Source: Minisyncoccota bacterium
GTDB taxonomy: Bacteria > Patescibacteriota > Minisyncoccia > Phycocordibacterales > UBA9973
Reading direction: 5' to 3'
Assembly (NCBI GenBank): GCA_031973235.1
Contig: DALYDM010000004.1
Location: forward strand, 1-38,144
Length of the DNA: 38,144 nt
Numbering within the stretch: position 1 is the stretch's first letter; every line of letters starts with the position of its first letter. A program made the translations under genes and the position numbers. Below are positions 5,546 to 32,889 of the stretch, in pieces. The notes below the pieces were generated by a model, which was not told the origin of the DNA, searched no databases, and worked only from the letters and a program-made list of their open reading frames with translations.

Positions 5546-5758
5546 TTAATTAAGTGGGTCTATTTCATGAGGATGCCATGGATGACATTTTAAAATCCTC
5601 TTAATTGTAAGAAAAAATCCTTTAAAAAATCCATATTTTGTAAAAGCCTGCAATGAATATTCTGAGCAGGTTGGATAAAACTTACATGAATCCTTTTTAC
5701 CAACAAATCGCATAATATGTTGATAAATAAGGATTATTTTAATCATTATCCACTTCAT
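5546..5758 (-). CDS. yidD: Membrane protein insertion efficiency factor YidD
   Basis: [10 protein letters not shown]...RILKCHPW motif, located between rnpA and yidC. Confidence 0.93.
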
Positions 5759-6093
5759 TACAGTAAAGATATCTTACTTAAAAGCTCTAAAACTGCTTTT
5801 TTTGCCTCATTCGGCGACAAATCGAGATAATGTTTTTTTGGAAATATCATTAAAATACAAGGTATTTTTAGGTTTTTTGATACATTTTGGACAATTTCAT
5901 ATATTCTGCGCTTTGTTTTATTGCGACCAACCGCGCTTTTTTCAACCTTTTTGGACACAACTACTGATGTTTTAGAGGGAAATTCGCTAATAACCTTATA
6001 TTTTAAGGTTAAAAAATCATTTGAAACAGTTTTTGAATGAGAAAAAGACTCAGAAAAGAGTCTTTTTGTAATTCTTTGCCTCTTAGGGAGCAT
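5758..6093 (-). CDS. rnpA: Ribonuclease P protein component
   Basis: MLPKRQRI start and RNR-type motif [18 protein letters not shown]; synteny. Confidence 0.92.
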
Positions 6094-6242
6094 TATTTTC
6101 GGCGAGTTTTCACTGCTACACGAGCTCGACCTTTTTGTCGGCGTCTCTTGAGGACATTTTTTCCTGTCTTAGAAGCACTTCGGACGAGAAATCCGTGTGT
6201 CTTTGCGCGCTTTCTTTTATTAGGGTTATAAGTCTGTGACAT
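6093..6242 (-). CDS. rpmH: 50S ribosomal protein L34 (missing from the supplied ORF track)
   Basis: Translated by hand: [49 protein letters not shown]. Its TAA overlaps the rnpA ATG (TAATG). Confidence 0.96.
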
Positions 6243-6369
6243 ATGTCGGAATATACACTAAATTATAAATTAAATCAATAGCTGCATTTATTGTAATGAT
6301 TTTCTTTTAGAGCACGACTCTTTGTTGTTGTGAAGTATGCACCATTAAGTAGGGGAGGGTATAATAACA

Positions 6370-6421
6370 CTATTCACAGTTTTTCCACAGGGTAATCCAG
6401 AGTTTTGAATTGTTATTCACA
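6370..6421 (+). promoter_or_regulatory. DnaA boxes upstream of dnaA
   Basis: CTATTCACA 6370, TTTTCCACA 6381 and TTATTCACA 6413, versus consensus TTWTNCACA. Confidence 0.7.
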
Positions 6422-6475
6422 GCCTTTGTTCAATTATAATTGTTTTTATACAAGCTAACTTATTGATTCATTCTT

Positions 6476-7828
6476 ATGACAGAGTACAAACAACTTTGGG
6501 ATACGTGTTTAGGAGAGATAGAACTTAATGTCTCAAAAGCTAATTTTAGTACTTGGTTTAAAGATACTTCCATAATTAAATATGAATTTGGAACAATATA
6601 TGTCGGTGTGCCAAATGAATTTGTTAAAGATTGGCTAATAAACAAGTTTAATAAGCTTATTCTAAAAACATTAGTTGATCATTCACCTGAAATCAGGGCA
6701 GTTGAATATATTATTTCTAAACACTCTCAAAAAAAGGAGGGTACAGATACAGATATTGCAAAAACATTCATAAACAAGGAATTGCCTTTGTCTGATTTAT
6801 ATATAAACAAAGAAGACAATCTTAATCCCCGATATGTTTTTGAGTCATTTATTGTAGGTCCTTTTAATGAATTAGCTCATGCTGCGGCTCAATCAATAAT
6901 AAGAAACCCTGGTCGTTCTTATAATCCACTATATATCTATGGAGACACAGGACTTGGAAAAACTCACCTAATACAAGCAATTGGTAATGCAATAAAACAG
7001 AAATTTCCTGAAAAAAAGGTTAATTATATTACCCTTGAGAAGTTCGCAACTGACCTTATAAATTCATTCCAAAACAACAAAGCTGCTCAATTTAAGGAAA
7101 AATACAGGAAATATGACGTATTAATTATTGATGACATACAATTTGTAGGTAAAATGGAAAAAACACAAGAAGAACTTTTCCATATGTTTAATTTTATGTT
7201 TGAAAATAATAAACAAATTGTATTTTCATCAGATAAACACCCAAATTTTATTCCTGGATTAGAAGATCGCCTTCGTTCAAGATTTAATCAAGGAATGATC
7301 ATTGATGTCCTTCAACCAGAATATGAATCTCGAATGGCTATACTTAAAGCAAAAGTATCACAACTAGGTGATATTCCACTTACTGATGAAATAATCGAGT
7401 ATTTAGCAACAACAATTCAAGGAAATGTCCGAGAACTTGAAGGAAATCTTAATGTAGTTGTCTGTCATATTCAGCTTAAAAATAGACCACTTTCATTGAA
7501 TGAAGTAAAAGGATTAATAAAAAATAGTATTAAACCAAAGAAAAATATATCTATTAAGGAGGTTGCAAAGGTTATTTCAGACTATTACAACCTTGAAGAA
7601 TCTCTTATATATGAAAAAACACGAAGGAAAGAGATAGTAAGAGCTCGACAATTAATCATGTATATTCTTCGAGAAGATTTCAATGTGTCATATCCATTAA
7701 TAGGTCAAAAACTAGGAGGAAAGGATCATACAACAGTAATTCATTCTTGTGAAAAGGTTAAAAATGACCTTAAAAACAACATGGGTCTTTCACAGGAAAT
7801 AGAGGAATTACGTTTATTATTTAAGTAA
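6476..7828 (+). CDS. dnaA: Chromosomal replication initiator DnaA
   Basis: NPRYVFESF, Walker A GDTGLGKTHL, IDDIQF, domain IV GGKDHTTVIH. Confidence 0.99.
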   Translation: MTEYKQLWDTCLGEIELNVSKANFSTWFKDTSIIKYEFGTIYVGVPNEFVKDWLINKFNKLILKTLVDHSPEIRAVEYIISKHSQKKEGTDTDIAKTFINKELPLSDLYINKEDNLNPRYVFESFIVGPFNELAHAAAQSIIRNPGRSYNPLYIYGDTGLGKTHLIQAIGNAIKQKFPEKKVNYITLEKFATDLINSFQNNKAAQFKEKYRKYDVLIIDDIQFVGKMEKTQEELFHMFNFMFENNKQIVFSSDKHPNFIPGLEDRLRSRFNQGMIIDVLQPEYESRMAILKAKVSQLGDIPLTDEIIEYLATTIQGNVRELEGNLNVVVCHIQLKNRPLSLNEVKGLIKNSIKPKKNISIKEVAKVISDYYNLEESLIYEKTRRKEIVRARQLIMYILREDFNVSYPLIGQKLGGKDHTTVIHSCEKVKNDLKNNMGLSQEIEELRLLFK

Positions 7829-8089
7829 AATATGTGTATAACTCTGTGTATATCGTGGATATAACTATAGGATAACAATATGAAAAACCTGTTTATTCAA
7901 AAAGAATAACTAGTCAGTAATAATATATTTATTAAAGTTGTTAACAATTACCAAGAGTTATACACAAGTTGTGTAAAAAATATTTTAGAAATCTAGTTAT
8001 GATTTAAAAGGTTATTTAAGACTTATCCACTTATCAACAGGACTTAATAGTATTAATAAATTTATATATAAGAATTAATACACATACTT
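7829..8089. other. Replication origin oriC (DnaA-box cluster, DnaA-trios, AT-rich unwinding element)
   Basis: Boxes TGTGTATAA 7833, TGTGTATAT 7845, TTATACACA 7958, TGTGTAAAA 7970, TTATCCACT 8023, TTATCAACA 8031, then GGAC, NTA trios at 8044-8058 and an AT-rich tract. Confidence 0.9.
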
Positions 8090-9187
8090 ATGAAAGTAGA
8101 ATGCCAAATAGAAAAAATAAAAAAAGCACTTGTAGATGCGGATAAGATTACTGGTAAAAATCTCACTCTCCCAATTTTAAGTTCTATCTTACTTATTGCG
8201 TCAGGTAAGTCATTAAAATTTAGATCTACAAATATTAATCTCGGTATAGAAATAGAAATTCCTGCCAAAGTTGAAAAAGAAGGTGTTATTGCTGTTCATG
8301 GAACAACTATAGCCACCCTTTTTAACTCTTTAAATGACCAAGGTAACGTCTTTCTAGAACAAAACGACCAGATTGTTAATATAACCACAAAACATAGCTC
8401 ATTCGTCATTAAAAGCTATTCATATGAAGATTTTCCAACTATTCCGATAATAGAAGGAGAAACAATAACAATCCCTGTTAAAAAGTTTATTGAAGGTATA
8501 AAATCAGTGTATTACAGTTCATCACTTTCAGATATTAAGCCTGAAATAGCAAGTATTTATATTTATAACGAAGGTGATTCTCTTGTGTATGTTGCTACAG
8601 ATAGCTTTAGACTTGCCGAAAAGAGAGTAAAATTTAAATCAGATAGTGATTTTCCTGGGATATTGATTCCCTATAAAAATATTATCGAAATAATTAAGAT
8701 TATAGGTGATATTGATGGTGAAATGTCACTTATTGTAAACAAAAATCAAGTTTCATTTAGTGCACCTGGTGTATATCTCACTTCAAGGGCAGTTGACGGA
8801 GTTTTCCCTGATTATAAGCAAATAATTCCAAAAGAATTTAAGAGTGAAGCGGTTGTGTTGAAACAACATTTAGTAAACACATTAAAACTCTCAACAATTT
8901 TTAGTGATAAATTTAATCAAATAACACTTTCATTGAAACCTTCACAAAAGATTTTAGAAATTCATTCGAAAAATTCAGATATTGGTGAACATACAACTCG
9001 AATTGAAGGGACATTTACAGGTGAAGATATTGAAGTAAGTTTTAATTCGAAATATTTTATTGATTGTTTTCAATCAATAAGTAACGATAGTATTGTTTTA
9101 AAATTTAATCAAACTAATAAACCTATGATTATTCAATCATCACAAGATTCATCCTTTACTTATCTTGTAATGCCAATGAATAGATAA
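8090..9187 (+). CDS. dnaN: DNA polymerase III beta clamp
   Basis: ATDSFRLA, FPDYKQIIP and C-terminal LVMPM; follows dnaA. Confidence 0.98.
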   Translation: MKVECQIEKIKKALVDADKITGKNLTLPILSSILLIASGKSLKFRSTNINLGIEIEIPAKVEKEGVIAVHGTTIATLFNSLNDQGNVFLEQNDQIVNITTKHSSFVIKSYSYEDFPTIPIIEGETITIPVKKFIEGIKSVYYSSSLSDIKPEIASIYIYNEGDSLVYVATDSFRLAEKRVKFKSDSDFPGILIPYKNIIEIIKIIGDIDGEMSLIVNKNQVSFSAPGVYLTSRAVDGVFPDYKQIIPKEFKSEAVVLKQHLVNTLKLSTIFSDKFNQITLSLKPSQKILEIHSKNSDIGEHTTRIEGTFTGEDIEVSFNSKYFIDCFQSISNDSIVLKFNQTNKPMIIQSSQDSSFTYLVMPMNR

Positions 9188-12092: not shown

Positions 12093-13487
12093 ATGAACAG
12101 AGAAACAGAAATACAAGAACTTCTCACACGTGGTGTTGCTACATATATTGATCCAGAAAATGCATTTAAGAAAAAACTTGAATCTCACCCAGAGCGTATA
12201 GTAATAAAATTCGGAGTAGATCCAACTCGACCAGATATACACTTAGGTCATGCAGTAGTACTTCGAAGACTTCGTAAATTTCAAGACCTCGGATGTAAGG
12301 TTGTATTTTTGATTGGTGATTATACAACTCAAATCGGTGACCCAACCGGTAAAAGTAAAGTCCGCCCAGAAATCAGTCAACAAGAAATCGAGGCCAACAT
12401 GAAAACATATCTTGAACAGGTAGGAAAAATTCTTCGAACTGACGATGAGGTATTTACATGGATTAGAAATTCAGAATGGTTTTTAGATGTTTCAGATATT
12501 AATCCAGGAGAAAAAACTGAAGTAAACCTCTCTATTAATTCAGAAAAAGACAATATTCATAAAGACATTTCAATAAATCCAAACTCTTTCGTAGGGAAGG
12601 CGGTGCTTTTTGAAAACACCAGAATGCAAAAAACACACCTGAAAAGTTCTGTTATCCAAACAGTGTCATTTACACAAGTTCTTTCGACATTGCGCCATAT
12701 TACACACGCACGTCTTATCGAAAGAGATATGTTTCAAGATCGTATAAAAAGTGGAAGTGAGCTTTATATGCATGAAATGCTCTACCCTGTTATTCAAGGT
12801 ATTGATTCAGCACTTTTATATAGAATTTATGGTGCATGTGATTTAGAGGTTGGTGGAACAGACCAAACATTTAACATGCTTGTCGGTCGCGATGTAATGA
12901 AAATGAACAAACAAGAACCTCAGGCAGTCCTCTCTTTTGATCTTCTCGTGGGTCTCGACGGAAAAGAAAAAATGTCAAAGAGTCTTGATAATTATGTAGC
13001 AATAAGTGATGAACCTGCAGATATGTACGGCAAAATCATGTCTATTCCAGACAGTGCAATAGTAGAATATTTTACTCTCTGTACATATACACCACTTAGT
13101 GATATCGAAGAAATTAAAATAAAATTAAGCGAAGGAAAAGAAAATCCAAAAGATATTAAAATGCGACTTGCTGGTGAAATTGTTGCAATATATCACGGAG
13201 AGGGAGCACGACTTACTGCAGAGCATGATTTTGTTACAAAATTTCAAAAGAAAGAAATCCCTGATGATGTCTTAGAAGTGAAAGTGTCAAAAGACGATTT
13301 ACTAATGGATGTATTTAAAAAAGAAAAAATCGTAGAATCAAATGGAGAGTTTCGTAGGTTGATTGATGAGGGAGCAATCACACTTCTCACAAACAATAAT
13401 CAGAAAATATCTGATTCACAAACCATCGCACATGAAGGTGTGTATAAAATTGGAAAAAAGAGATTTGTGAAAATCGTGCTAATTTAA
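12093..13487 (+). CDS. tyrS: Tyrosine--tRNA ligase
   Basis: FGVDPTRPDIHLGH, GGTDQTFN, KMSKS, C-terminal S4-like domain. Confidence 0.97.
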   Translation: MNRETEIQELLTRGVATYIDPENAFKKKLESHPERIVIKFGVDPTRPDIHLGHAVVLRRLRKFQDLGCKVVFLIGDYTTQIGDPTGKSKVRPEISQQEIEANMKTYLEQVGKILRTDDEVFTWIRNSEWFLDVSDINPGEKTEVNLSINSEKDNIHKDISINPNSFVGKAVLFENTRMQKTHLKSSVIQTVSFTQVLSTLRHITHARLIERDMFQDRIKSGSELYMHEMLYPVIQGIDSALLYRIYGACDLEVGGTDQTFNMLVGRDVMKMNKQEPQAVLSFDLLVGLDGKEKMSKSLDNYVAISDEPADMYGKIMSIPDSAIVEYFTLCTYTPLSDIEEIKIKLSEGKENPKDIKMRLAGEIVAIYHGEGARLTAEHDFVTKFQKKEIPDDVLEVKVSKDDLLMDVFKKEKIVESNGEFRRLIDEGAITLLTNNNQKISDSQTIAHEGVYKIGKKRFVKIVLI

Positions 13488-13511
13488 AAAACCACCAATT
13501 GGTGGTTTTTT
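13486..13511. terminator. Bidirectional terminator (perfect palindrome)
   Basis: AAAAAACCACCAATTGGTGGTTTTTT. Confidence 0.85.
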
Positions 13512-13514
13512 AAA

Positions 13515-13721
13515 TTATTCTTCTATCTCTTCTTCTTGGTCATCATCTAGGGAGTCTTCATCTTCCCAAGACATTCCATCATCAAGACTATCGTCTTCGG
13601 TTCCAAACTCATCAATAACATCATCTGTCAACACTCCATCACCCATTTCTTTTTCATCATCATCGTCATCGAGTGCTGTGAGTAATGGACTTTTGATTAA
13701 GATTTCTTCTTCGTAGTGCAT
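13515..13721 (-). CDS. Small hyper-acidic protein
   Basis: 68 aa from ATG 13721, of which 32 are D/E; ends at the shared terminator with tyrS. Confidence 0.6.
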   Translation of the reverse strand: MHYEEEILIKSPLLTALDDDDDEKEMGDGVLTDDVIDEFGTEDDSLDDGMSWEDEDSLDDDQEEEIEE

Positions 13722-13817
13722 ACGTGTATAAAACAATTGATTATTACTAATATGCTACCTTTTGTATCAAATACAGAAAATTTTGCAAGTACTTTGGAAT
13801 AAAAGTGGGGGAAAATA

Positions 13818-13972
13818 AAAAAAGACTTAAATCTCTAAACAATCCTTGGGTGCGTGCGCACACAAGTAATGCACTGTCATAGGATAGCCCCAGGAACGAA
13901 AATCGCACCAAGACGTCCTAATCAAATACCTATAACCGCGAGGCTGATTGCTTAGAGATTTAAATCCTTTTT
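13818..13972 (-). ncRNA. Putative structured ncRNA (6S RNA candidate)
   Basis: 27-bp closing stem 13946-13972/13818-13844; its 3 mismatches become G-U pairs only on the minus strand. Internal stems, terminal U-run, upstream sigma70 promoter. Confidence 0.55.
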
Positions 13973-14018
13973 AGAAAACAAAATGTCACCTGCAATATTC
14001 AAGGTGACTTCTAGGGAG

Positions 14019-14046
14019 AGTATAGCATATTAATAAATTTTGTCAA
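14019..14046 (-). promoter_or_regulatory. Sigma70-type promoter toward the structured RNA and acidic ORF
   Basis: Minus strand TTGACA-16 nt-TATACT with extended TGn. Confidence 0.7.
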
Positions 14047-14075
14047 GCACCCAGTGTATACTATATACTACTAGT

Positions 14076-15059
14076 ATGAATAACTCCGATGATCGATTTT
14101 TAGACCAATCACTTCGTCCTGAAACTTGGGATGAATATATTGGACAAGAAACTATCAAAGAAAACTTAAGAATTTTGCTTAAGGCAGCAGAAGAACGCAA
14201 TCATCCAGCGGAGCATATACTTTTTTATGGACCACCAGGACTTGGTAAGACAACTCTCGCACATTTGATAGCAAAAGAAACAGGAAGACAAATCAAAATT
14301 ACTTCAGGACCAGCAATAGAAAAGGTGGGAGATCTCGCTTCAATACTCACCAACCTTTCACCAGGTGATATTATTTTTATAGACGAGATTCACCGACTCA
14401 ACAAGATGGTAGAAGAAGTATTGTATCCTGCAATGGAATCTGGTGTACTTGATATCATTATAGGAAAAGGACCTTCTGCTCGGACAATCCAACTCGACCT
14501 TCCTCCGTTTACTCTTATTGCTGCGACAACTCGTATTGCACTTCTTTCATCACCACTTCGTTCACGTTTTGGTGGTGGAGTTCATAGACTAGAATTTTAT
14601 ACTGAAGATGAAATAAAAAAAATAGTTGCTCGAAGTGCAAAAATTCTCGGAGTCAGTATTGATGACGATGCTCTTACAGAGATTTCCCGACGTTCACGGT
14701 TTACACCGAGAACAGCAAATTATTTTTTGAAACGTTGCCGCGATTATGCTCAGGTGCATAAAAAGGATTTAGATAAGAAAACTGTGTTTCTCGCACTCTC
14801 ACTTCTTGGAATTGATGAACTTGGACTTTCACAGTCTGACAGAGTCGTTCTTGAAACTATTATTGAAAAATTCAACGGTGGACCAGTCGGACTCAACACA
14901 CTCTCTGCGGCCACGAGCGAAGAAGAAGCGACCATCGAAGAGGTGACAGAGCCATACCTAATTCAACGCGGACTTCTCGAGCGTACACCACGTGGACGAG
15001 TTGCTACTCAAAAAGCATATGAGCATCTCGGTTTTGAAGGATTCGAAGATAAAAAATAA
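14076..15059 (+). CDS. ruvB: Holliday junction branch migration helicase RuvB
   Basis: [48 protein letters not shown]. Confidence 0.98.
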
Positions 15060-15083
15060 ACCCCCGCACGGCGAGGGTTTTTT
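15058..15083. terminator. Terminator after ruvB
   Basis: AAACCC-CCGC-ACG-GCGA-GGGTTTTTT. Confidence 0.65.
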
Positions 15084-15228
15084 GCTTTATAGAACACATT
15101 AGTTTGATTCAATGGATAACCTTAGAGAATCTTACTTCGGGGGACAAGCCCGTGGGTGTTCAGTCGTTTTTGTTTTTTCTGCTTTTGGCTAGGGGGTGTC
15201 ACGATTGCGTTGTGACCCCGGCAGCATG

Positions 15229-15327
15229 TTAGCAGGATGTTCCGGTGGCTTCGATCAAATTTTCATTAAATGTTACGGCGTTGATGCCGTTCGGGGCGCC
15301 ACGCGCCGAGCAGATTGTTTTTTTCAT
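15229..15327 (-). CDS. Possible 32-aa orphan ORF (MKKTICSARGAPNGINAVTFNENLIEATGTSC)
   Basis: First ATG downstream of a consensus promoter; no homology recognised. Confidence 0.25.
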   Translation of the reverse strand: MKKTICSARGAPNGINAVTFNENLIEATGTSC

Positions 15328-15356
15328 GTGCAAACCCTTTTTATATGGGTGAATAT

Positions 15357-15384
15357 ATTATATATTGTTTATTGTTTTTGTCAA
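15357..15384 (-). promoter_or_regulatory. Sigma70-type promoter within the ruvB-ruvC spacer
   Basis: Minus strand TTGACA-16 nt-TATAAT. Confidence 0.7.
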
Positions 15385-15433
15385 ACACTTGTGGGTGTTT
15401 TGGAATTAGGGTCCAGGGAGGTACACTAATTTC

Positions 15434-15910: not shown

Positions 15911-15929
15911 AATTTAAAGTATTAACAGA

Positions 15930-15984
15930 AAACCAAATACATAATGGGCGACGGCTTAGCCGTCGCCCATTATGTATTTGGTTT
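15930..15984. repeat. 26-bp perfect inverted repeat (long hairpin / bidirectional terminator)
   Basis: AAACCAAATACATAATGGGCGACGGC-TTA-GCCGTCGCCCATTATGTATTTGGTTT between convergent ruvC and pilB. Confidence 0.85.
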
Positions 15985-16055
15985 GGTTTTCAAACGAGGA
16001 GAACTGGAAAGAAAATAATTCTACTTCAAGAAAATACAAATTTTAAAGTCAAAAA

Positions 16056-32242: not shown

Positions 32243-32824
32243 TTATTTTTTACCCAAAATCTTGAGTGCCTCTTTGATTCGAGCATTTGTATCCATGGCT
32301 GTATCTGGAATATCTTTGAGTGCATCACGAATTTCATGTTGTTGATAGCCAAGCGCCATAAGTGCTTGTGCTACATCACTTTCAGATCGAAGTGTTCCAC
32401 TTTCTGCACTGTGCCCACGAAGAGTGAGTTTGTCTTTGAGTTCAAGAACAATTTTCTCAGCTGTCTTTCTTCCGATACCTGAAACTTTTGTGAGGTAGCC
32501 AGTGTCACCACTTGCGATTGCGTTTTTAAGTGTGTCGACAGATCCCATGCCGATTATTCCAAGTGCACCACGTGGCCCGATTCCTGATATTTCTATAAGC
32601 ATTTGAAAAAAATCTAATTCTTCAAGATTAAAAAATCCAAAAAGTTCAATTGCATTCTCTCGTACTGACATGTGTGTCCATAGATTGATACTCTCACCAT
32701 CGAGTGAGTTGATTCGAGAAAGTGCATCTGTGGTGGTATAGACGAGATAGCCAACTCCTCCTACATCAAGTATTACCGATTTGTCTGTTGTGTGTAGAGG
32801 TATCCCTTTTAAGTATGAAATCAT
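32243..32824 (-). CDS. ruvA: Holliday junction DNA-binding protein RuvA
   Basis: MISYLKG, GVGY, SGIGPRGAL, GIGRKTAEKIVLELKDK, ALMALGY. Confidence 0.96.
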   Translation of the reverse strand: MISYLKGIPLHTTDKSVILDVGGVGYLVYTTTDALSRINSLDGESINLWTHMSVRENAIELFGFFNLEELDFFQMLIEISGIGPRGALGIIGMGSVDTLKNAIASGDTGYLTKVSGIGRKTAEKIVLELKDKLTLRGHSAESGTLRSESDVAQALMALGYQQHEIRDALKDIPDTAMDTNARIKEALKILGKK

Positions 32825-32860
32825 GATACTAGTATACCTTATATTTGAGTTGAGATGGAT

Positions 32861-32889
32861 TTGCAAAAATGATTATTTTCTTGTATAGT
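32861..32889 (+). promoter_or_regulatory. rpsT promoter
   Basis: TTGCAA-17 nt-TATAGT. Confidence 0.6.

Follow-up and report, generated by a model that had tools for sequence, protein, structure and literature searches.

The spacer in front of ruvB in this member of the Patescibacteria raises the question of what is specified by an inverted repeat with 27-nt arms that lies behind a near-consensus promoter. The first-pass annotation of the window (the whole stretch of DNA analysed, 38,144 nt) had described it as a promoter-driven RNA of 155 nt, and had offered as readings a divergent 6S RNA, a new class of non-coding RNA or a switchable leader of an acidic ORF further downstream. According to the comparative sequence data presented here, the element is a small-RNA gene family with a covariation-supported fold in Paceibacteria/Nomurabacteria (Patescibacteria, CPR), and our best guess, held with somewhat less than even confidence, is that this RNA would act as a 6S-like decoy of RNA polymerase. 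The locus comprises the following features.

14041..14046, minus strand: -35 hexamer TTGACA of the promoter directed at the RNA, a match to the consensus
14019..14027, minus strand: extended -10 element TGcTATACT of the same promoter, a match to the consensus
14008-13985, minus strand: lineage-specific leader hairpin (GUCACC, 12 nt, GGUGAC), followed by AUUUUGUUUU
13972-13818, minus strand: structured RNA element of ~155 nt, beginning with AAAAAGGAUUUAAAUCUCUAAGCAAUC and ending with GAUUGUUUAGAGAUUUAAGUCUUUUUU
13946-13972, minus strand: 5' strand of P1, 27 nt, including the core AAUCUCUAAGCAAUC
13934..13945, minus strand: P2, small hairpin AGCC-UCGC-GGUU, directly 3' of the P1 5' strand
13871..13929, minus strand: P3, long arm with covariation (helices 3-5)
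13845..13866, minus strand: P4, 3' hairpin CUUGUGUGCG/CGCACCCAAG, abutting the P1 3' strand with no linker
13818-13844, minus strand: 3' strand of P1, GAUUGUUUAGAGAUUUAAGUCUUUUUU, 27 nt
13812..13823, minus strand: U-tract (UUUUUUUAUUUU), overlapping and then extending past the P1 3' strand
14040..14069, plus strand: promoter-like TTGTCA-18-TATACT aimed at ruvB (ATG at 14076), a 10/12 match to the consensus

The closing stem that had been proposed for the minus strand is there in full: all 27 positions of P1 pair, through 24 Watson-Crick and three G-U pairs (G6-U150, U9-G147 and G22-U134). Because three of the pairs are G-U, the two arms are 89% complementary as DNA. The arm pattern has no further match in the window, and none is expected in shuffled sequences. 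Folding of the minus-strand 155-mer yields -62.1 kcal/mol with a z-score of -7.48 (0/200 shuffles were as good), whereas the plus strand of the same interval reaches only -38.1 kcal/mol (z -3.1). Together with the higher scores of sense over antisense matches in the covariance model described below, this bears out the idea of a strand-specific RNA.

RuvB was used as an anchor to collect 80 loci from Paceibacteria/Nomurabacteria MAGs, and in at least 45 of these BLASTN located the element, at ~70-75% identity, upstream of ruvB on the opposite strand. An RNAalifold consensus obtained on an alignment of 44 sequences, with compensatory changes in 26 of 52 pairs, served to build a covariance model (R1), which gives exactly one sense-strand match, scoring 34-175 bits, in 79 of the 80 loci; the contig of the 80th (L063) is too short to include the site. 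The 73 aligned members score 65-175 bits in the sense orientation versus 28-58 bits in antisense. In their alignment 94.9% of the pair cells are occupied by standard pairs, changes on both sides are seen at 37 of the 52 pairs, and none of 500 shuffles attains any of the five measures used. When the consensus structure is shifted by 1-3 columns, only 37-53% of the cells remain paired. The reverse complement of the alignment is paired in 80.1% of cells, since 16.2% of the cells are G-U, one pair being G-U in 69 of the 73 sequences. Homologues and covariation, by which the first-pass annotation had wanted its RNA to be judged, are thus both present.

A pattern that does not depend on ruvB, ATCTCTAAG-N105-135-TTTAGAGAT, was scanned over metagenomes and viral contigs. 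It retrieved 120 metagenome stretches, 34 of which are true members by R1, and in all 30 pattern-found members with a long enough contig ruvB is adjacent and divergent. The viral contigs gave 85 pattern matches; R1 was applied to 80 of these and recognised no member among them. The core RNA of family members measures 144-168 nt, with a median of 155. RNA and ruvB are neighbours in ~113/114 loci, which is the most conserved adjacency of this neighbourhood, and the small RNA appears to be a core-genome gene, since no relative whose sequence covers the site lacks it. The occurrence of one copy per locus at the same site, the covariation and the absence of viral members argue that the element is neither a chance structure, nor a MITE, nor viral. 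A protein search with RuvB for distant CPR lineages added no phylogenetic depth, as every relative that it retrieved was at least 83% identical. Two loci have a layout of their own. In L013 the RNA (5877-6058, plus strand) is found ~1.9 kb downstream of ruvB on the same strand, and this is the only locus where it is not upstream of the gene; in L030 (2780-2960) a deletion joins the TGCTATACT promoter to the P1 core, so that the outer 5' half of P1 is lost and the 3' strand is intact, and this could be a minimal variant that exists in nature or else an error of assembly.

The fold supported by covariation is a four-way junction of P1, P2, P3 and P4. P1 is uninterrupted and has 26-27 bp throughout the family; in the alignment its 26 pairs (helix 1) are formed in 97.9% of the cells, with double changes at 18 of them. 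Only the core group has the P1 core AAUCUCUAAG/UUUAGAGAUU without variation. The Yonathbacteria-like loci L069, L072 and L073 have replaced it through compensatory changes, and they retain AGGAC...UGGU...CUG...AUCCU and the linker. P2 has 3-5 bp, followed by ~2-5 unpaired nt (U-N-U), and shows double changes at two of three pairs; in isolation its median energy is -0.6 kcal/mol, and values down to -9 kcal/mol are reached where members are richer in G+C and have UUCG loops. Given the covariation of P2 and its high stability in some of the lineages, the centre of the RNA would be a selected four-way junction, with ~2-5 unpaired nt per linker, and not an open bubble.

The P3 arm is built, in this order, of P3a (GUAUU/AGUGC), an internal loop, P3b (UAGGA/UCCUA), a 1x2 loop with C opposite UA, P3c and a variable tip, which ranges from a UUCG tetraloop to inserts of up to ~45 nt. 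The helix beyond the 1x2 loop ends in UGGU/ACUG with tandem G-U pairs. The deepest-conserved nucleotides of the whole RNA, kept in the most divergent members, are AGGAC (13919-13915) and CUAUCCU (13887-13881) in this arm. P3 is followed by the short linker UUA and then by P4, which has 8 bp, double changes at all eight pairs (helices 6-7) and a median energy of -6.7 kcal/mol. Thus, of the rod-like interior that had been drawn from the window, the 3' hairpin CUUGUGUGCG/CGCACCCAAG survives as P4; the pairings GUUAUAGG/CCUAUGAC and AGGACG/CGUUCCU are particular to the window, and covariation puts a four-way junction in their place.

The promoter of the RNA had also been recognised correctly. Its sequence TTGACA-16-TGcTATACT (14046..14019, minus strand) agrees with the consensus at 11 of 12 positions plus the TG, with a spacer of 16, it is one of only three sites of at least 11/12 in the 38-kb window, and its -10 element ends 46 nt before P1. 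From the promoter geometry, transcription would start near 14012. The string CTTGACAT-N-TGCTATACT is kept upstream of the RNA in most relatives. The GUCACC/GGUGAC hairpin that had been placed between promoter and stem is present as well, at 14008-13985, and it is shared only by the window and its closest relative, L001, unrelated leaders being found elsewhere. Because the distance from promoter to P1 varies from ~8 to 100 nt among loci, the leader, with the hairpin of the window included, falls outside the conserved family. At the other end, the U-tract at 13812..13823 probably serves as an intrinsic termination site; the longest U run has six or more residues in 49 of the 73 members, and a canonical terminator lies no more than ~40 nt beyond the RNA in most loci.

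The promoter-like site aimed at ruvB stands back to back with the RNA promoter in the window and overlaps it, and a ruvB promoter at 14040..14069 would imply a leaderless transcript or a very short leader. Loci of the L032 type carry, directly 5' of the RNA and on its strand, the sequence ATTATAGCAT, which is the reverse complement of an extended -10 element TGCTATAAT aimed at ruvB. In many relatives ATTATAGCAT sits downstream of the RNA-directed TGCTATACT; there the RNA and ruvB promoters would face each other, with 5' ends overlapping by ~20-30 nt, and transcriptional interference would therefore be possible. Other lineages have a second, proximal RNA promoter, TTTGCA-16-TATAAT. DnaA-box-like 9-mers (TTATCCACA, at most one mismatch) occur at 3.26/kb in the RNA-ruvB spacer versus 0.36/kb in the rest of the loci, a 9-fold difference, and at least one is found in this spacer in 28 of 78 loci (for example L062, L048, L053, L079, L002, L005, L054 and L033). 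Groups of two or three direct copies, spaced by ~12 nt, are frequent, and in one case such a 9-mer covers part of the -10/+1 region of the promoter aimed at ruvB; the RNA-ruvB spacer of the window itself has no such 9-mer.

The genes that matter for the interpretation of the neighbourhood are the following.

5758-6093, minus strand: rnpA
6476-7828: dnaA
8090-9187: dnaN
13721-13515, minus strand: acidic ORF of 68-73 aa
14076-15059, plus strand: ruvB (Pfam RuvB_N, RuvB_C and lid domain)

In the window the order is jag, yidC and rnpA, clusters of DnaA boxes, dnaA and dnaN, a PBP gene and tyrS, the acidic ORF, the RNA, ruvB and ruvC, and a T2SSE ATPase gene. The usual order in relatives is T2SSE ATPase (forward), RNA (reverse), ruvB, ruvC, acidic ORF (forward), tyrS (reverse) and the PBP gene. 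The window and L001 have the RNA-ruvB-ruvC block in inverted orientation, which is the sole reason why the acidic ORF comes to lie downstream of the RNA. The first-pass annotation had expected relatives to carry the element between tyrS and ruvB; they do carry it, in a spacer that is bounded by the T2SSE ATPase gene and ruvB instead. Where the usual order is kept, the RNA is followed by a terminator and by the T2SSE ATPase gene, which is convergent with it, and the place of the acidic ORF is behind ruvC, next to tyrS. The gene downstream of the RNA differs between the two gene orders. The acidic ORF is 71% identical in L001, and weak acidic matches are seen between ruvC and tyrS in many relatives (for example L018 4628-4849 and L027 4861-5016); from its position in these genomes, this ORF appears to travel with tyrS and not with the RNA.

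Other features of the same region deserve mention. A 17-bp bidirectional terminator (AAAAAACCACCAAUUGGUGGUUUUUU) at 13480-13517 is common to tyrS and the acidic ORF, and similar A-tract/U-tract terminators follow both tRNA genes. The ruvA gene (32243-32866, minus strand) lies 17 kb from ruvB, whose neighbours here are ruvC and the divergent RNA gene. In the ruvB-ruvC spacer (15060-15433) the minus strand carries a promoter that fits the consensus at 12 of 12 positions (15384..15357); the spacer also contains a stretch of ~280 nt with raised local G+C content (0.44-0.54) and, at ~15050-15082, a bidirectional terminator. It gave no Rfam, ARAGORN, phage-record or locus match, is absent from L001, and may harbour a second, lineage-specific small-RNA gene. 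Just past ruvC, at 15919-15995, there is a hairpin with 38-nt arms, 87% complementary, and a 1-nt loop, which is probably a long terminator. The replication-origin region spans 5700-8150, with DnaA boxes at 5718-5754, 6381-6421 and 7833-8145, and the cumulative GC skew has its minimum at ~4-5 kb, stays low until ~15 kb and then rises. A replication origin at the RNA-ruvB spacer of the window could be discarded, given that dnaA, dnaN and the DnaA-box clusters are found at 5.7-8.1 kb.

Searches for a known identity gave no match at the site. With Rfam 15 at the gathering score nothing was found there in a scan of the whole window, and the Rfam 15 models, RF00013 and 6S-Flavo included, gave no match at E<=10 for the window, L194, L014 or L072 (search spaces of 250-800 nt). 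As a positive control, E. coli ssrS obtained 139.8 bits with RF00013 in the same program. The check by covariance models that had been suggested for the 6S assignment therefore turned out negative in these four representatives. ARAGORN on the window reports two tRNA genes only, neither at the RNA site. A tRNA, a tmRNA, an SRP RNA and an RNase P RNA were ruled out, as there is no Rfam or ARAGORN match at the site, and the presence of rnpA at 5758-6093 leads us to expect a conventional RNase P RNA elsewhere. Likenesses to SRP RNA, RNase P RNA, K-turns, GNRA receptors, T-loops and hairpin ribozymes were dropped on inspection by eye because the motifs did not fit and no model matched. No reverse transcriptase, transposase or Cas gene was seen near the RNA. 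Since the family is absent from Rfam 15, it represents at least a new RNA family, and the absence of matches is compatible with the "new ncRNA class" of the first-pass annotation. The open-access literature gave no paper linking 6S RNA with CPR, Parcubacteria, Patescibacteria or Saccharibacteria, and the co-mention of Patescibacteria and 6S RNA that was found concerns the mitochondrial SRP. The 2017 catalogue of 224 RNA motifs does not mention CPR lineages or ruvB (PMC5737381).

How might such an RNA work? Helices and small internal loops are conserved and there is no single-stranded seed, which points to recognition by a protein; the RNA would then act in trans through a bound protein and not by base pairing with a target. 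Its likeliest partner would be the housekeeping RNA polymerase holoenzyme, as with 6S RNA. P1 would mimic the downstream duplex DNA and P3 the upstream DNA, and the 5' segment of ~16 nt, in which P2 is marginal in most members, would stand for the template strand of an open promoter; P4 would be the 3' hairpin opposite the bulge, as in 6S RNAs of the Firmicutes type, and short product RNAs that free the polymerase could be copied from the invariant 5' strand of P1.

Several traits bring the RNA close to 6S RNA, which is reported in nearly all bacteria and has a length of 160-200 nt (PMC8414754). With a core of 144-168 nt plus a leader, the RNA is of similar size (~155-185 nt), and the gene is a predicted single-copy, stand-alone gene behind a promoter of housekeeping type. 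The closing half is comparable, the 26-27 bp of P1 standing against 27 paired positions in the RF00013 consensus, and so is the 5' segment of ~16 nt (~13-19 nt), as against a 5' bulge of 16 nt. The apical arm (P3), which is supported by covariation, has internal loops and a variable tip, where 6S RNA has internal loops and a terminal loop. The 6S-1 RNA of B. subtilis and the 6S RNAs of lactic acid bacteria have a 3' hairpin opposite the 5' bulge (PMC8414754), and here the stable, covariation-supported P4 lies opposite the 5' segment as in the Firmicutes 6S-1 type. The template of the product RNAs (pRNAs) is on the 5' strand of the 6S closing stem beside the bulge, and is conserved in lactic acid bacteria (PMC8414754); this is also the place where the core group shows its strongest sequence conservation.

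However, other traits set the RNA apart from 6S RNA. Its 5' segment forms the covarying hairpin P2, which is mostly marginal (median -0.6 kcal/mol) and strong in some members (to -9 kcal/mol). The RF00013 consensus has a closing stem with a bulge and a 12x13 internal loop, whereas P1 is flawless; the GG/AA pRNA motif of the lactic acid bacteria is not evident; and the deepest conservation is in the apical arm (AGGAC/UAUCCU) and not around the bulge. Invasion by a pRNA was simulated in silico by constrained folding of the 73 members. No conserved alternative helix was found for the freed 3' strand, and 623 of the ~1000 freed positions were unpaired, although computed folding of this kind may miss a rearrangement. 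In lactic acid bacteria the 6S gene adjoins rarA, an ATPase gene that acts in replication restart. We take rarA to be related to ruvB, and the adjacency of 6S with rarA and that of the present RNA with ruvB would be an analogy only.

Three of the other explanations are improbable. That the element acts at the level of DNA, as a MITE, another mobile inverted repeat or a protein-binding palindrome, might be thought from its 27-nt terminal inverted repeats, but it is present as a single copy at an orthologous site in ~113 loci, it has no second copy in 38 kb and no flanking direct repeats, none of the 80 scored viral contigs with the pattern is a member, and the G-U pairs are conserved on one strand only (94.9% sense versus 80.1% antisense pairing). 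The MITE that the first-pass annotation had held up against its own proposal thus finds no counterpart in copy number, site or flanks, and we give a DNA-level element practically no weight. Hardly more probable is a riboswitch or other switchable 5' leader of the acidic ORF (13721-13515). The window and L001 have this ORF behind the RNA and in the same orientation, and in the window no separate terminator stands between U-tract and ORF. The adjacency is confined to these two genomes, and synteny thereby refutes this part of the annotation: in the usual order what comes after the RNA is a terminator and the convergent T2SSE ATPase gene, and the acidic matches, low-complexity and with E of ~5e-5 or worse, stand beside tyrS after ruvC. 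Moreover, the ORF has neither an upstream Shine-Dalgarno sequence nor a Pfam family. As terminators follow within ~40 nt in most loci, the RNA would be a stand-alone gene, and the leader hypothesis fails. A module acting in cis on ruvB is unlikely, although less so. According to this explanation, selection would act on the RNA-directed promoter, through transcriptional interference or antisense overlap of the 5' ends, with DnaA boxes as modulators in some lineages and the structured RNA as mainly a stable terminator or insulator. The near-universal adjacency to ruvB (~113/114 loci), the position of ATTATAGCAT, reverse complement of TGCTATAAT, downstream of TGCTATACT in many relatives, the 9-fold enrichment of DnaA-box-like 9-mers and the resemblance of P1 plus U-tract to a terminator would all agree with it. 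However, such a module would not need four covarying helices and invariant loop nucleotides ~100 nt away from the promoters; the promoter distance and the layout of the spacer vary widely while the RNA is constant, and in L013 the RNA is on the downstream side of ruvB, 1.9 kb away.

A more serious competitor of the 6S-like decoy, and nearly as likely, is that the RNA has no relation to 6S and belongs to a new class of housekeeping RNAs that bind a protein. A protein partner, for example a junction-binding or double-stranded-RNA-binding one, would dock at the four-way junction and at the invariant motif of P3 (AGGA/UCCU helix, 1x2 loop with C opposite UA, UGGU/ACUG helix with tandem G-U), and P1 may be a stem for RNase III processing or for stability. 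This would account for the lack of an Rfam match, for the covariation of all four helices, P2 and P4 included, for the deepest conservation being in internal-loop nucleotides of P3, away from the centre, for the perfect P1 duplex of 26-27 bp, for the absence of a conserved rearrangement helix and for a ruvB linkage that survives inversion. On the other hand, only ruvB co-varies in position with the RNA and no candidate partner was identified, the overall dimensions and the 5' segment opposite a 3' hairpin fit 6S, and very small genomes are expected to keep only universal small RNAs. It is thus possible, to much the same degree, that we are dealing with a previously undescribed CPR housekeeping RNA, a compact four-way-junction ribonucleoprotein RNA inherited with ruvB. 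In its extreme form, which we regard as very improbable, it would be a Holliday-junction-like mimic of branched nucleic acids, or a scaffold, acting on junction-binding proteins; a junction mimic would explain why the linkage to ruvB-ruvC persists through rearrangements and why ruvB is uncoupled from ruvA.

Comparison with other structured RNAs gives leads of different value. The orphan structured RNAs of bacteria, such as the raiA motif and the other candidates of that 2017 catalogue (PMC5737381), are likewise defined by covariation, with conserved internal-loop nucleotides, restriction to one lineage and no obvious regulated gene; however, the present RNA matches no such family in the Rfam 15 models and is a predicted core-genome gene. 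Retron msr-msd RNAs also have long inverted repeats (a1/a2) that bracket a structured non-coding RNA, but here there is no reverse transcriptase nearby, the neighbours are the housekeeping genes ruvB, ruvC, tyrS and that of the T2SSE ATPase, and the element belongs to the core genome and not to an accessory island. The Ro-associated Y RNA and YrlA presumably share with it a long stem that pairs the ends, a multi-helix interior and a 3' U-tail, which we take as a lead only; no Rfam Y_RNA or YrlA match was obtained and there is no tRNA-like domain, nor was a Ro/Rsr gene seen in the window.

Much of bacterial diversity belongs to the CPR/Patescibacteria, whose genomes are minimal, and to our knowledge their non-coding RNAs are almost unexplored. 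Both the 6S-like and the new-class readings can be tested directly with the alignment, covariance model and coordinates given here. If the RNA is not a 6S RNA, it would be a new core ribonucleoprotein RNA. If the 6S-like decoy that we tentatively prefer is correct, the 6S RNA so far missing from this lineage would be present in a strongly remodelled form, and would show how far the mimic of an open promoter can drift.
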